From assembly GCA_964361095.1 (NCBI GenBank), contig CAYHZA010000003.1, forward strand, positions 31,773 through 95,772: DNA of 64,000 bases, in the 5' to 3' direction. The position numbers and the translations under genes were made by a program. The notes under the pieces were generated by a model. It was not told the origin of the DNA and made no database searches. It saw only the letters and a list, made by a program, of their open reading frames with translations. Positions 13,802 through 36,821 of the stretch are shown here, piece after piece; position 1 is the stretch's first letter, and each line of letters opens with the position of its first letter. Source of the stretch: an uncultured Candidatus Saccharibacteria bacterium (GTDB taxonomy: Bacteria; Patescibacteriota; Minisyncoccia; UBA6257; 2-01-FULL-56-20).

Positions 13802-13872
13802 CGGGGTGTAGTATAGTGGTAGTACGCAAGGCTGGGGGTCTTGTAGTGGGAGTTCGATTCTCCCCACCCCGA
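13802..13872 (+). tRNA. tRNA-Pro (anticodon GGG)
   Basis: Manual fold. Acceptor CGGGGTG/CACCCCG; D-arm GTAT-AGTGGTA-GTAC; anticodon stem CAAGG/TCTTG with loop CUGGGGG; T-arm GGGAG-TTCGATT-CTCCC; discriminator A; no encoded CCA. Confidence 0.7.
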
Positions 13873-23862: not shown

Positions 23863-25455
23863 TTAATTCGGCAGAATAGCCACCCCGAGAATCGAAGAAA
23901 TTGCTGAACCGCTGAATGTCCACGACATTTGTGTCGTGGGGCCATTTTTCGTACTTCCACCACCCTTCGCGTTTGTGGCGGCATCAGACCACCGCGACAC
24001 TTGCCCGGAACCCGGTGATACCACGGAAACGCCCGAAACAACTACATCTTGTACGACCTCACCTGCATTGCTGGTAATACTAAGTATTAGCGAGGTGCCA
24101 CCACCGGTTGAAGCCTGAAAAAGTCCCCCAAGCGGAGTGGTTTGATTAACTCCACTCCATGACGTGGCGCCAGTCACAATAGACACAGCAGTCGACGCGG
24201 TAAATACAATATCATTCGTACCAACAACGGGGTTCACGAGATACCACAGCTCAACGCGATGATTGCCCGCATCATTTCTAAAACCTTTCTTCGTAAGAGG
24301 AACCCCTCCATACGTCATTGAGGTCACGGGGCTCCCAACGCTCGACATTGAAACCCCAACCATCAGAAGACGGTTGGTCCCATTTGAAATAGTATGTTGC
24401 CACGTAAGACTGGTCGCATCTATTGTTGTTTTCGCCGAGCTCGTCGTATCAAATACTATCCCGGCAACCGGAGCATTCACGGTAAATCCGCCGGGAAGCA
24501 TGCCGGGCGATCCTCCGGAATTTGTCACCACCACATCCCACGCGCCGGTTGCAGATCCCGCAAGGTTAAAGGACCCTCCGTTTATTGTCGTACCGTTCGC
24601 GACAGTAAACCCGGAACCGATAATATCAGTCTGGCCGGTTTTCGAAAGCTTTACACTCGCTCCGGATTGGAAATTAGAGCCGGTAATGGTCGTGATACTT
24701 ACCGTTCCGTTATTTGTTCCGATTGATGGAATAATCGTTGAAACAGTCGGTGTAGGAATGGTCACCGTAGACGACGGCCGCAACGATGTCGTAACAATCG
24801 TGAGATCAGTACCCGTTTCAAACACTCCGTCAAGAATACCTCCATCTTGTTTTACGATATCAATATATTTCTGAGATTCCATAGCGGCGGTAAATTCAAA
24901 AGAACCGCAGGTATAGGTGTAATAGAATCCTGACGCAAAGGTGTTCACCGGATCAAGCGGCAACTTCGTAAGAGGAGGCTGGACATTAATAGCCGATTGC
25001 CTTAGATCAACGGGAATCCAACCGGTACTGTCAACGTTCGCAGCCACGCTTTGAGGAACACGTACGATAGTCCACCCCGAAGGCGGTGTCGGTGTTGTCT
25101 CGCCATTATCCGAAGGAACCGAAACGAATAATCTTTTATTTGCCGGCACGTCATTGATACACGAATCAGTCTCGGCGCCAGTCGGAGGAGTGGGGTAACT
25201 TGGACCATCCAAATCCAAAGTGCCCCCTTGCGCCGTAATAATCGAGAATGCCCTTGCAAGCGTCTTTACGTCATACAGGCGGGTGCTGTCCCGCGCCTGG
25301 CGCAAAAGCTCCGCGGGATTCAAGGTCAAGATCACTACAACGGAGAGCACCGCGACAATGCCGATGACCACCAAAAGCTCGATCAACGTGAACCCTTTCA
25401 TATTTTTCTTAAAAAAGTTTTGGCTGATAGATTTTTTCTTTTTCATGTTTTTCAT
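23863..25455 (-). CDS. type IV pilin-like protein with a large C-terminal domain
   Basis: Prepilin leader and cleavage motif KG|FTLIELLVVIGIVAVLSVVVIL. The probable start is the internal MKGFTL near 25401. Confidence 0.7.
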   Translation of the reverse strand: MKNMKKKKSISQNFFKKNMKGFTLIELLVVIGIVAVLSVVVILTLNPAELLRQARDSTRLYDVKTLARAFSIITAQGGTLDLDGPSYPTPPTGAETDSCINDVPANKRLFVSVPSDNGETTPTPPSGWTIVRVPQSVAANVDSTGWIPVDLRQSAINVQPPLTKLPLDPVNTFASGFYYTYTCGSFEFTAAMESQKYIDIVKQDGGILDGVFETGTDLTIVTTSLRPSSTVTIPTPTVSTIIPSIGTNNGTVSITTITGSNFQSGASVKLSKTGQTDIIGSGFTVANGTTINGGSFNLAGSATGAWDVVVTNSGGSPGMLPGGFTVNAPVAGIVFDTTSSAKTTIDATSLTWQHTISNGTNRLLMVGVSMSSVGSPVTSMTYGGVPLTKKGFRNDAGNHRVELWYLVNPVVGTNDIVFTASTAVSIVTGATSWSGVNQTTPLGGLFQASTGGGTSLILSITSNAGEVVQDVVVSGVSVVSPGSGQVSRWSDAATNAKGGGSTKNGPTTQMSWTFSGSAISSILGVAILPN

Positions 25456-25460
25456 AAGGA

Positions 25461-26816
25461 TTACTTCGCTGCGTTATAAATCGCGGATACTTCGGCGGCG
25501 GTAAGGGCTCGGTTATATACGCGGAGCTCGTCAAATGTCGCATTGACTACCGGATTACCTCCGGAGATACGGTCTCCGATACTATACCCAAGGTTTGTTT
25601 CGGGAACTATGCTCGTTATTGATGTCGTACTAAAAACCAATCCGCCGTTATTGTACAAACTCGTCGTCTGACCATTCCAAACGACTGCAACATGCGTCCA
25701 TAACGGGGAAACAGCACCGAGCCCCGTTAGGGCTTTGTAGGAAGCAGAGTTGTGATAATACTGGACATTATCCGAATCGGTTCCAAACGCAAATCCGTGC
25801 TCGTTAAACGGAAGTGTCGAATAGTAATCACCGTAAATAAATCCGGCGGCAGAAGTTCGAACAACCCATAAACTCATACTTATGGAACTCGACGCGTAAA
25901 GAGATGGGCTGTTTGCAATTTGCGCGGCACACGACACTCCGCAACTCGCACCATTGAACCTCGCCGCGCCGCCGACTTTTCCCGTAACCCATGTCCACGT
26001 TGGCGTAGCCAAGAAAGCATGGTTGCTGTTCCCCGAAGTATCGGCAATCGTACTTCCGCTTCCGTCGTCAAACTTCCAATAACCGACCAGTCCCGTCGCT
26101 TGCGTCCATAAATTCACGCTGTTTCCGACTTCAAAACGGGTGGGATCGGTGCCCCCGTCGCCTGCCGAAGATAACTTAATAAATTTTGACGACTCAAGAA
26201 GCGCCGAGGCGATCACAAAACGCCCGTCGGCAACATAGCTGTAATAATATCCCGAAGTGGTGCTGTTTATCGGATCGATCGGTAGCGCGGAAAGCGGCGA
26301 TCCAGCCGAAAAGGTTTTGAAATTTATCGGCACCCACCCCGTACCATTAACACTCTGCAACGTTGAGGACGCGGTGCAGTGATATTTCCATCCCGGAGGA
26401 AGTGTCGAGGGTGACGGACCAACCCCAGTGCAATCGGTCCCCGCGGTCGTCGTGGCATTCGGATCAGCAATCGAAATATACACCGTCTGACTCAAGCCTA
26501 ACGACTGCTCCACACCATAGATTCCCAAGGCCTTACCCAAACTATTCATCTGCGCGAGGCGTTTCGTATCGCGCGTTTGGCGAAAAAGTTCAACGGGATC
26601 CAACACTAAAATAATGGCTACGGAGAGTACCGCGATAACGCCGATTACAATTAAAAGCTCAATCAGGGTAAACCCCGTTAGAGAATGATGATTTTCTTTA
26701 TTTTTCCGAAAGTATCGGGGTCTATCCCAGTACTCCAACTTCTCTAACGGGGTAAATCCCCTTTTTCGATTCCCCATGCCTCGCAAAGACAAAAATTGCA
26801 TAAATAGTATATTCAT
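25461..26816 (-). CDS. type IV pilin-like protein with a C-terminal LamG/ConA-like lectin domain
   Basis: TG|FTLIELLIVIGVIAVL prepilin motif. The C-terminus (RFNGASCGVSCAA...LWTHVAVVWNGQTTSLYNNG...FDELRVYNRALTAAEVSAIY) is a LamG signature. Confidence 0.7.
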   Translation of the reverse strand: MNILFMQFLSLRGMGNRKRGFTPLEKLEYWDRPRYFRKNKENHHSLTGFTLIELLIVIGVIAVLSVAIILVLDPVELFRQTRDTKRLAQMNSLGKALGIYGVEQSLGLSQTVYISIADPNATTTAGTDCTGVGPSPSTLPPGWKYHCTASSTLQSVNGTGWVPINFKTFSAGSPLSALPIDPINSTTSGYYYSYVADGRFVIASALLESSKFIKLSSAGDGGTDPTRFEVGNSVNLWTQATGLVGYWKFDDGSGSTIADTSGNSNHAFLATPTWTWVTGKVGGAARFNGASCGVSCAAQIANSPSLYASSSISMSLWVVRTSAAGFIYGDYYSTLPFNEHGFAFGTDSDNVQYYHNSASYKALTGLGAVSPLWTHVAVVWNGQTTSLYNNGGLVFSTTSITSIVPETNLGYSIGDRISGGNPVVNATFDELRVYNRALTAAEVSAIYNAAK

Positions 26817-28718: not shown

Positions 28719-29918
28719 TTATTCTAGTTTAAAATCGGCATTTATTAAAGCTTCTATTGCCTTTTTTACTTTAAACCCCTTGCAATGCCCGAGAACACCG
28801 AAATACGACTGTACCGATTGCTCGAATGAATCTTTAGTAAGCGCACCGCGCACTATTTCTAATTTACTCTCTCTTATTTTCTTTAAAATTCTTCTTCTGG
28901 TTCTTGTACGCACGATTCGATAGTGCGGCAATATAACGTAACCAAGAAAATCTATGCCCTGCGAATATTTCCGCAGAAAAATCTTTTGCGGATGCAGCGC
29001 GAGCAAAAGCGAATCCCGAAGAAAATCGGTCAATGGCGATACAAGCCGTTTAAGATGGCTCTTGTCGTGGCTTACAATAATAAAATCATCGCAATAACGA
29101 ACATAGTGTTTTTCCTTGAGTGTGTGTTTCACAAATTGATCTAATTCATTCAGATAAATATTGGCAAAAAGCTGGCTCGTTACATTTCCGAGCGGCAGTC
29201 CTTTGTCGTCTGACTTCTCAAAACTTTTTATAATGCGGCGAATAAGCCATCGTGCGCCGTCATCGTCAACCTTTCTATCTATCAATTCTAAAAGAATATT
29301 ATGATCAATGGAGTCAAAAAACTTTCTAACGTCGCATTTCAAAGCAAAACAATGCGCCGCATAATTTTTGCTCACCTTTCGTAGAAACTGCTCGAGCCGT
29401 GTAACTCCCCGATGGGTACCCTTATGCATGCGACAGGAATACGAATCAAAAATAAAACTTCTATCAAAAACAGGGTATAATACTCTAAATATTGCCTGGT
29501 GCACCACTCGGTCGCGCACTACGGCCTTATGAATATGGCGCAGTTTCGGATCGCGGACATAAAATGCGTGATAGGAGTGGTGCGTGTACGTCCGATTCCG
29601 TAACTCTTCGTGAAGTTGGAAAAGATTGTCTTCCAAGTTAAATTCAAACTCTTGGACATCGGTTTTCCTTCTCTTTCCGCGCCGAAATTCGCGCCACGCC
29701 GAAAATAAATTTTCGAGACATATAATTTTTTCAAAAATAGTATTTCCATGAACCCCCCCCCGACGGAATAACGGTGCCGCTTGTGCATAAGATTGGTGAA
29801 TTGTATAAAACGCTTTATCTCTTAGGTAAAAAAATTCCGAAACGCGATCACTTCGGCATTCATCTGAAAATCGAACAGCTTTGTCTCGATATACTCGAGC
29901 TTTCAATCTCGGCGGCAT
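28719..29918 (-). CDS. diversity-generating retroelement (DGR) reverse transcriptase
   Basis: RT motifs including LPLGNVTSQLFANIYLNELD (the DGR-specific [IL]GxxxSQ variant of QGxxxSP) and VRYCDDFIIV (YxDD). The N-terminus has LENLFSAWREFRRGKRRK. Confidence 0.8.
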   Translation of the reverse strand: MPPRLKARVYRDKAVRFSDECRSDRVSEFFYLRDKAFYTIHQSYAQAAPLFRRGGVHGNTIFEKIICLENLFSAWREFRRGKRRKTDVQEFEFNLEDNLFQLHEELRNRTYTHHSYHAFYVRDPKLRHIHKAVVRDRVVHQAIFRVLYPVFDRSFIFDSYSCRMHKGTHRGVTRLEQFLRKVSKNYAAHCFALKCDVRKFFDSIDHNILLELIDRKVDDDGARWLIRRIIKSFEKSDDKGLPLGNVTSQLFANIYLNELDQFVKHTLKEKHYVRYCDDFIIVSHDKSHLKRLVSPLTDFLRDSLLLALHPQKIFLRKYSQGIDFLGYVILPHYRIVRTRTRRRILKKIRESKLEIVRGALTKDSFEQSVQSYFGVLGHCKGFKVKKAIEALINADFKLE

Positions 29919-30118
29919 TAGAAATCAAGGAAAAGAAATCGTTTTTGCTCTCTAACGCGCGGATCAAAAATGAGGTACTCAAGCGACTTCTGCGCAACGC
30001 CCGAGAACTTTCAATTATCCATGAAAGACAATATATCAATATTGAAAAAGAATTGATAGAAATATCAAAAATGATAAACGGCTGGCTGAAGTTTTTAAAT
30101 AACAAAGAGGGTGCATGA
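29774..30118 (+). CDS. avd: Avd-like four-helix-bundle accessory protein (23S rRNA IVS protein family)
   Basis: IGELYKTLYLLGKKIPKRDHFGIHLKIEQLCLDILELSISAA matches the FPKEExFGLxSQxRRAAVSIxSNIAEG pattern. GTG start. It is on the opposite strand to the RT and TR and overlaps the RT 5' end. Confidence 0.6.
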   Translation: MPLVHKIGELYKTLYLLGKKIPKRDHFGIHLKIEQLCLDILELSISAALEIKEKKSFLLSNARIKNEVLKRLLRNARELSIIHERQYINIEKELIEISKMINGWLKFLNNKEGA

Positions 30119-30136
30119 CCCTCTTTGGCGAAACTT

Positions 30137-30252: not shown

Positions 30253-30478
30253 TATTATCTGATTCCATCCGAATCACTGGCATTCTTTGGAAAAAATGCC
30301 TGCGTGTCCGATCTTGATCGGCATCGTTTTGGGGCATCGCACTTAGCAAACCCCCACTAGAACCAGATAAGCAGTTCCCTTGAAATATTGGCAAACCGTT
30401 ATCAAGCACTGAGTTGTATATATGCCGACCGGTTGTATTAGCCAATTTTATTTTAACCTAAAGTGTGAAGTAAAAAAA

Positions 30479-30500
30479 TGGGTTCGGCATAGCCGAACCC
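30479..30500 (-). terminator. perfect hairpin downstream of the VR (target-gene terminator and DGR-associated stem-loop)
   Basis: GGGTTCGGC ata GCCGAACCC flanked by A/T runs, about 40 nt 3' of the VR. Confidence 0.55.
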
Positions 30501-30528
30501 AAAGGTTTCAAGTTGCAAGATACAAGCG

Positions 30529-36747: not shown

Positions 36748-36821
36748 TGGAGGGGGATACGAGAATCGAACTCGCGTCTCAACCTTGGGAAGGTCACGTA
36801 CTACCACTGTACTAATCCCCC
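36748..36821 (-). tRNA. tRNA-Gly (anticodon CCC)
   Basis: Manual fold of the minus strand. GGGGGAT/ATCCCCC acceptor; D-arm GTAC-AGTGGTA-GTAC; anticodon stem TGACC/GGTTG with loop UUCCCAA; T-arm GCGAG-TTCGATT-CTCGT; discriminator U; CCA encoded. Confidence 0.7.

Follow-up and report, generated by a model that had tools for sequence, protein, structure and literature searches.

The retroelement and its C9 tract

The DNA analyzed herein, referred to as the window, is a stretch of 64,000 nucleotides (nt) from an uncultured Candidatus Saccharibacteria bacterium (contig CAYHZA010000003.1 of assembly GCA_964361095.1, positions 31,773 to 95,772), and the subject of the analysis is a run of nine C residues (C9) at the junction of two divergent genes of a diversity-generating retroelement (DGR), which encode the accessory protein Avd and the reverse transcriptase (RT). 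The element that encloses the run is complete, with the target gene, variable repeat (VR), template repeat (TR), avd and RT all present. Its parts are as follows, in positions of the window and with protein lengths in amino acids (aa).

31263-30529, minus strand: DGR target gene, 244 aa, with no Pfam match
30655-30535, minus strand: VR, forming the last codons (3' end) of the target gene
30252-30132, minus strand: TR, a 121-nt repeat shared with the VR
29774 (GTG)..30118, plus strand: avd, four-helix-bundle accessory protein of 114 aa, Pfam bAvd PF22296
29753..29761: G:C homopolymer, C9 on the plus strand and G9 on the RT strand, the proposed hypermutable tract
28719..29918, minus strand: RT as its maximal open reading frame (ORF), 399 aa from ATG 29918, RVT_1 match with E 1.9e-21
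28719-29750, minus strand: conserved body of the RT, with the motifs LPLGNVTSQ and YCDD in its translation

The RT is of the DGR type and a homologue search with it returns thousands of RT relatives from the Candidate Phyla Radiation (CPR), the TR and VR form an adenine-specific pair that differs at 29 positions, 27 of them TR adenines, and the Avd protein matches bAvd PF22296 above the curated cut-off (E 3.8e-13; residues 3-107 on profile positions 3-106). The window DGR also has avd between the TR and the RT on the reverse strand, which is architecture B3, TR-(avd)-RT, a layout that makes up 90% of the set of CPR DGRs and is nearly absent elsewhere (Wu et al., 2018; PMC5758913). It shares with the CPR-type B3 DGRs (PMC5758913; DGR clade 2 of Roux et al., 10.1101/2020.04.01.020958) the order of a target with C-terminal VR, TR, reverse-strand avd and RT, a CPR (Patescibacteria) host, and adenine-specific TR/VR differences.

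For comparison, 80 related loci were fetched from genomes and 80 from metagenomes, which gave 145 groups after de-duplication; avd could be located in 134 groups, and 130 distinct loci could be scored for a repeat. All tract lengths given below come from consensus contigs. In 133 of the 134 groups avd is head-to-head with the RT on the opposite strand. An earlier reading of the window made from its sequence alone (the sequence-only reading) had taken the inverted avd for an unusual arrangement and proposed a survey of its frequency in related DGRs, and by this count, as by the published one, it is the ordinary B3 arrangement and not a rare one.

The C9 run is the sole run of G or C of at least 7 in the window. 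A single such run in 64 kb is not improbable, as one is present in 22 of 100 dinucleotide shuffles, and its significance hence comes only from comparison with other loci. Across the window as a whole the plus strand carries 52 runs of at least 5 C and 10 runs of at least 5 G. The run lies between the plus-strand avd and the minus-strand RT. The sequence-only reading had placed it at 29753-29761, and had stated that upstream of the conserved IFEKIICLENLF block the RT frame holds no starts other than ATG 29918 and TTG 29906, and for canonical starts, as for the run, it is confirmed. Its gap of 13 nt between the tract and the avd GTG is 12 nt by our count, and the tract, which it did correctly place in the frame of the maximal RT ORF, reads in full CGG GGG GGG GTT (R-G-G-V).

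Antisense leaders and tract length in the window and its relatives

The start regions of avd and the RT contain three further features on which the analysis depends.

29748..29771, plus strand: Avd leader ORF in the C9 state, from ATG 29748, MNPPPTE, ending at the stop TAA 29769-29771
29786..29788, minus strand: RT leader start ATG, the complement of the Avd His5 codon CAT and the family-typical RT start
29519..29788, minus strand: 89-aa out-of-frame ORF from the RT leader ATG in the G9 state

The 5' coding leaders of the two genes overlap antisense over a 41-nt stretch that runs from ATG 29748 on the plus strand to ATG 29788 on the minus strand, and ATG 29748 is in turn the complement of an RT His codon, CAT at 29750-29748. 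Because each ATG is locked to the frame of the other gene, one tract sets the frame of both. The two leaders are in frame only if the distance spanned by the two ATGs is divisible by three, at 39, 42 or 45 nt, corresponding to C7, C10 or C13. In the observed C9 state, with a span of 41 nt, the Avd leader stops after 7 codons and the RT leader ATG is out of frame. When the tract is set to C10 in silico, Avd from ATG 29748 reads MNPPPDGITVPLVHK... and has 123 aa, and the RT from ATG 29788 reads MHKRHRYSVGGGVHGNTIFEKI... and has 356 aa; at C7 the corresponding lengths are 122 and 355 aa. In either case the Avd leader reads MNPP(P)DGITVPLVHK... into avd, and the restored RT N-terminus matches that of homologues.

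Judged by its reading frames, the window is now in the predicted off class, which differs in several respects from what the sequence-only reading had supposed. That reading treated the tract as lying merely upstream of avd, while in the in-frame class it is inside an ATG-led Avd leader (MNPPPDGIT-). It also took the present state as the on state and the 48 codons from ATG 29918 as an N-terminal extension of the RT, yet C9 is the off, or non-canonical, class, the extension has no counterpart among homologues, and the family start is ATG 29788, out of frame at C9. The RT homologues are 340-356 aa long, cover about 85% of the 399-aa ORF of the window, begin 10-20 codons before the conserved block and have N-termini of the form MHQRH...GGG...H.IFEKI. 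In public data the same RT is annotated in three ways, with 399 aa (Logan), with 305 aa from an internal TTG (NCBI, MEK7193344.1) and with 236 aa, and these differing annotations are symptoms of a broken start. The avd gene is called from GTG 29774 as a 114-aa gene in five other assemblies, and this GTG, being downstream of the tract, could serve avd in the off state. The stop TAA 29769-29771 of the C9 Avd leader is only 2 nt before GTG 29774, a spacing that would allow termination-reinitiation, so Avd might persist when the RT is off.

A repeat at the same junction is common in the related loci. Of the 130 scored, 88 have a poly-G of 6-13, most often of 9 (37 loci) or 10 (23 loci), a further 8 have (GT)n, (CCTGT)n or (CT)n in its place, and 34 are repeat-free, while 44 of the 47 G/C runs of at least 8 in the 570 kb of related DNA are at the junction. 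Contingency loci are built on simple repeats, with about 7 units or more in the case of a homopolymer, and the C9 here and the 6-13 G or di- and pentanucleotide repeats of the relatives are of this kind. The occurrence of differing repeat types at one position argues for selection on repeat instability rather than on one sequence. The loci with these other repeats are L026, L050, L051, L053, L058, L078, L057/L181 and L073, with most of the labelled ones assigned to Levybacteria or Microgenomates; with the RT ATG downstream of it, their repeat is crossed by the avd leader alone, and avd is ATG-intact in none of the 8. In another subgroup (L035, L056, L065 and L067, also L024 and L062) the G9 tract precedes the RT ATG by about 22 nt and falls in the 5' untranslated region (UTR) of the RT, still within a longer avd leader. 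Two other roles for the tract were considered and rejected. As a Shine-Dalgarno-like element it would require an in-frame start at a suitable distance, which most loci lack after the tract, and in the window the ATG 4 nt downstream of it is out of frame; a G-quadruplex or other sequence-specific RNA or DNA element is ruled out by the (GT)n, (CCTGT)n and (CT)n repeats at the same place.

The geometry of the window recurs in the poly-G loci, where the short ATG-led leaders of both genes run antisense to each other over the tract. This tract codes for GGG on the RT side and for PPP on the Avd side, the homologous Avd leaders reading ATG-x-PPP, and the RT leader ATG complements the His codon of Avd IPIVH just as the Avd leader ATG complements that of RT H-x-IFEKI. 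Among the 57 loci with exactly one ATG-productive length class per gene, the same class is productive for both genes in 56, against an expectation of one-third (binomial p ~7e-26, this and the other p-values being indicative only, as the related loci are phylogenetically non-independent and such values overstate their independence). The His codons opposite the ATGs are CAT in 37/37 loci for Avd and 38/38 for the RT, compared with a background of 375 CAT vs 194 CAC for His in the RT body (p ~3e-14), and this bias at the partner codons indicates that both leader ATGs are under selection. Repeat-free relatives are without both His residues, with Avd starting MxxFD-IPIFKK and the RT starting MKxY/H..IFE, and their genes are divergent with ATGs about 0-20 nt apart.

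The presence of the repeat is strongly linked to broken frames, as the counts of loci with ATG-intact genes show.

No-repeat loci (34): both genes intact 31, neither 0, RT only 2, Avd only 1
Poly-G loci (88): both genes intact 22, neither 47, RT only 15, Avd only 4

The difference in both-intact loci (31/34 vs 22/88) has a Fisher p of 1.4e-11. No canonical in-frame RT start exists at all in 15 of 48 poly-G loci, and where the tract has decayed by point mutations (L013, L016, L036 and L062) both genes are in frame in 4/4. In most poly-G loci no canonical start separates the tract from the conserved Avd block, and hence the tract lies inside the Avd ORF and not upstream of it. In silico, the frames of both genes follow the length class.

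Length variation within species was followed in RT clusters at 90% identity, which hold both full-length and truncated calls on long contigs, and tract-length differences with near-identical flanks were found in 4 of the 5 related species that are repeatedly sampled. In the DGR of a Wildermuthbacteria species the tract is G9 in 8 contigs, G10 in 2, G11 in 1 and G12 in 1, the flanks of the junction being identical, and both genes are intact at G9 and G12 and neither at G10 and G11. A Nealsonbacteria DGR has G9 in 10 contigs and G10 in 7, and since one of the G10 contigs has the same VR haplotype as G9 contigs, the tract has changed there on a constant VR background. Further near-identical pairs are L015 (G10) vs L132 and L133 (G9), and L057 with (CCTGT)8 vs L181 with (CCTGT)7. 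The strain of the window itself is represented by five more assemblies, each 100% identical to the window and obtained from different runs, and as these repeat C9, giving six with the window, the C9 is real and not an assembly error. A scan of metagenome contigs that looked for other lengths, by the flanks of the window tract with a variable gap between them, found nothing. The VR is identical in the four further assemblies that cover it, and an invariant VR alongside C9 fits an off state, if weakly, as the samples may represent one population.

A candidate switch for targeted hypermutation

We propose that the tract is a contingency locus, a hypermutable simple-sequence repeat within the antisense leader overlap of avd and the RT, and that it probably serves as a slipped-strand switch acting on the two genes together. 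Replication slippage would alter the tract by one or two bases. In the on class both Avd and the RT would be made and mutagenic retrohoming of the TR into the VR would be possible, while in the two off classes neither protein would be produced from its canonical start and the VR would be frozen. Protein output would be expected to follow the frame, and switching within a clone would be frequent and reversible. That the homopolymer might be a slipped-strand on/off switch had been suggested by the sequence-only reading, and this idea is now strongly backed, in the comparative data, by the conservation of the repeat at the junction, by length change within species and by the dependence of both frames on length. 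More generally, we lean slightly toward the view that in most CPR DGRs the repeat in the avd/RT start overlap would be a heritable, reversible master switch for targeted hypermutation.

Unchecked mutagenesis can be expected to carry a cost when the binding protein already works. For the poorly understood regulation of DGRs, a repeat switch acting on avd and the RT would be a simple population-level answer, with a fixed variant in most cells and a minority that diversify, and lineages could diversify the binding protein and then lock in a variant. A contingency locus would then control a diversity generator, with one tract gating two opposite-strand genes by a shared frame condition. The design is also unusual in that the two start codons are each written as the complement of a His codon of the other gene. 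There are consequences for annotation as well, as pipelines truncate or miss such RT and avd genes, and the N-terminal GGG and PPP conserved in the proteins are read-outs of the DNA tract rather than protein motifs.

The closest parallels share parts of this arrangement. In the hifA/hifB fimbrial switch of Haemophilus influenzae a TA repeat in overlapping divergent promoters sets the -10/-35 spacing, and there too one repeat placed between divergent genes governs the pair; control in that system is transcriptional, whereas here the evidence points to reading-frame control in overlapping coding leaders. The DGR of Bordetella phage BPP-1 (mtd-avd-TR-brt) is made up of the same parts and presumably shares the retrohoming chemistry (Avd-RT complex, adenine mutagenesis), but its avd is co-directional with and upstream of the TR, and the literature searched describes no repeat switch in it. 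The polyG/polyC loci of Campylobacter jejuni (PMC4965091) resemble the window in having a homopolymer of at least 7 near the 5' end of an ORF, with one class in three in frame, and resemble its family in showing length polymorphism between near-identical genomes. They differ in that here one tract lies in two opposite-strand ORFs and gates both by their shared frame, in that the controlled genes constitute a mutagenesis machine and not a surface structure, and in that the hosts are uncultivated CPR bacteria. The slipped-strand mechanism of phase variation is already known, as is the CPR B3-type DGR, the account of which by Wu et al. (2018; PMC5758913) contains no treatment of promoters, start-region overlap or a repeat there; the word "promoter" is absent from it, and "overlap" appears twice, both times on other matters. 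What appears to be new is a contingency repeat that controls a diversity generator and a single tract in two antisense leaders with reciprocal ATG/CAT codons, and no description of such a switch was found in full-text searches that paired DGR or Avd with phase variation or repeat tracts.

Several observations weigh against a switch. The comparison of tract lengths that the sequence-only reading had put forward is favorable in related species, where the tract varies, and unfavorable in the strain of the window, where it is invariant at consensus level in the six assemblies, and the Avd and RT proteins predicted for C10 and C7 are absent, by exact look-up, from a collection of 15 billion proteins. 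Escape starts exist in the window, as GTG 29774 would give a complete bAvd domain and ATG 29918 or TTG 29906 would give an RT of 399 or 395 aa if the transcript covers them, and in some related loci a second length class offers TTG or GTG starts. The in-frame share of poly-G loci, 22/88, is no higher than a random one-third (p 0.11), so the assemblies show no selection for the on state. The Nealsonbacteria G10 contigs, which are off by canonical starts, differ among themselves in the VR, and within species there is no clean correlation between tract class and VR diversity, as VRs vary in both classes. The VR differences among these off contigs would reflect either a leaky off state or switching that is fast relative to VR turnover, and a leak may come, for example, through polymerase slippage. 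To these points must be added the non-independence of the loci noted above.

Some of the same observations are what would be expected if RNA polymerase or the ribosome instead slipped on tracts of G9-G12 and gave some in-frame product from any genomic length, so that the tract throttles avd and the RT to a low, noisy level and the variation in DNA length is a by-product. Tracts of such length suffice for polymerase slippage in other systems, the length classes are near a chance distribution with 22/88 in frame, and VRs differ among the G10 contigs that count as off. However, an obligatory programmed frameshift, or a gene read by transcriptional realignment, needs a constant offset, and all three classes occur, between species and within them, including loci that are fully in frame; the class changes within species, di- and pentanucleotide repeats at the junction are not classical recoding sites, and decay of the tract goes with intact frames in 4/4 loci, all of which makes a slippery site unlikely. 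We consider it very unlikely that the tract is non-coding, a spacer or UTR between divergent genes whose length tunes promoters or UTRs as at the hifA/hifB promoter, with the true starts downstream (GTG 29774 in the case of avd and, for the RT, a non-canonical codon). The GTG does follow directly after the tract in the window with the Pfam alignment beginning at residue 3, the RT ATG is downstream of the repeat in L035, L056, L065, L067 and the (GT)n group, and TATAAT-like boxes flank the junction. Against this, a canonical start that follows the tract and precedes the conserved block of Avd or the RT is lacking in most poly-G loci, untranslated leaders would leave both the CAT/ATG pairing and the frame coupling in 56/57 loci unexplained, and in in-frame contigs gene callers give a leader-containing Avd of 123-124 aa that overlaps the RT.

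The two remaining alternatives concern the window more directly. Were the RT truly to start at ATG 29918 or TTG 29906, C9 would be the on state, with a 48-codon extension antisense to avd, and slippage would switch the RT off. The frame is open from 29918, no other canonical start upstream of the conserved block is in frame, the 399-aa protein is the call of one pipeline, and a few homologues (e.g., P0002, P0030 and P0085) have long leaders in the alternative frame. This is still quite unlikely given the length and coverage of the homologues described above, the retention of the family-wide RT ATG (29788 here) with its CAT partner codon, the shorter forms of 305 and 236 aa in 2 of the 3 annotating pipelines, NCBI included, and the identity of the VR in the four other assemblies that cover it, and the extension is the mere antisense of the conserved avd N-terminus. 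An error of sequencing or assembly, or a decaying pseudogene with a chance frameshift, is hardly credible. Homopolymers are error-prone and some of the related contigs are presumably from long-read assemblies, but C9 is found in the window and again in five more assemblies made from different runs, the repeat keeps its position in dozens of CPR lineages, and the rest of the DGR is intact. A slipped-strand switch on avd and the RT together is the reading we prefer.

Other features of the locus

The DGR has alaS, rpoD and dnaG as neighboring genes and is hence a chromosomal element. An Rfam scan matched two tRNAs in the whole window and nothing at the DGR locus, and these are listed with further sites below.

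29800..29807, minus strand: putative -10-like box TATACAAT, ending 11 nt upstream of the RT leader ATG
30479..30501, minus strand: strong terminator-like hairpin with T-run directly after the target gene (consensus scan only)
30474-30445, minus strand: promoter-like site after that hairpin and upstream of the TR (consensus scan only)
13802-13872 (plus strand) and 36751-36821 (minus strand): tRNA genes, the sole Rfam matches in the window

The bases of the -10-like box at 29800..29807 also encode Avd ELYK on the opposite strand, and a TATAAT-like box is found at a similar distance from the RT leader ATG in most poly-G loci. The hairpin and promoter-like site at 30445-30501 suggest that the TR may be transcribed apart from the target gene. 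Another terminator-like hairpin, at 29856-29837 (minus strand, T7 tail, inside the avd antisense), falls between ATG 29918 and ATG 29788; it was considered as an argument against the 399-aa RT and set aside as not conserved, such hairpins being present in 2 of 42 loci, the same rate as in control windows. A 10-bp hairpin at 30103-30127 (minus strand) comes right after the 3' end of the TR on the RT strand, where it also overlaps the stop codon of avd, and it might end avd transcripts, TR transcripts or both.

Two adjoining large proteins of 530 and 451 aa, encoded at 23863-26816 on the minus strand, have type IV pilin-like N-termini (GFTLIELL...), and the gene call that matches the 451-aa protein carries a Laminin_G_3 domain.

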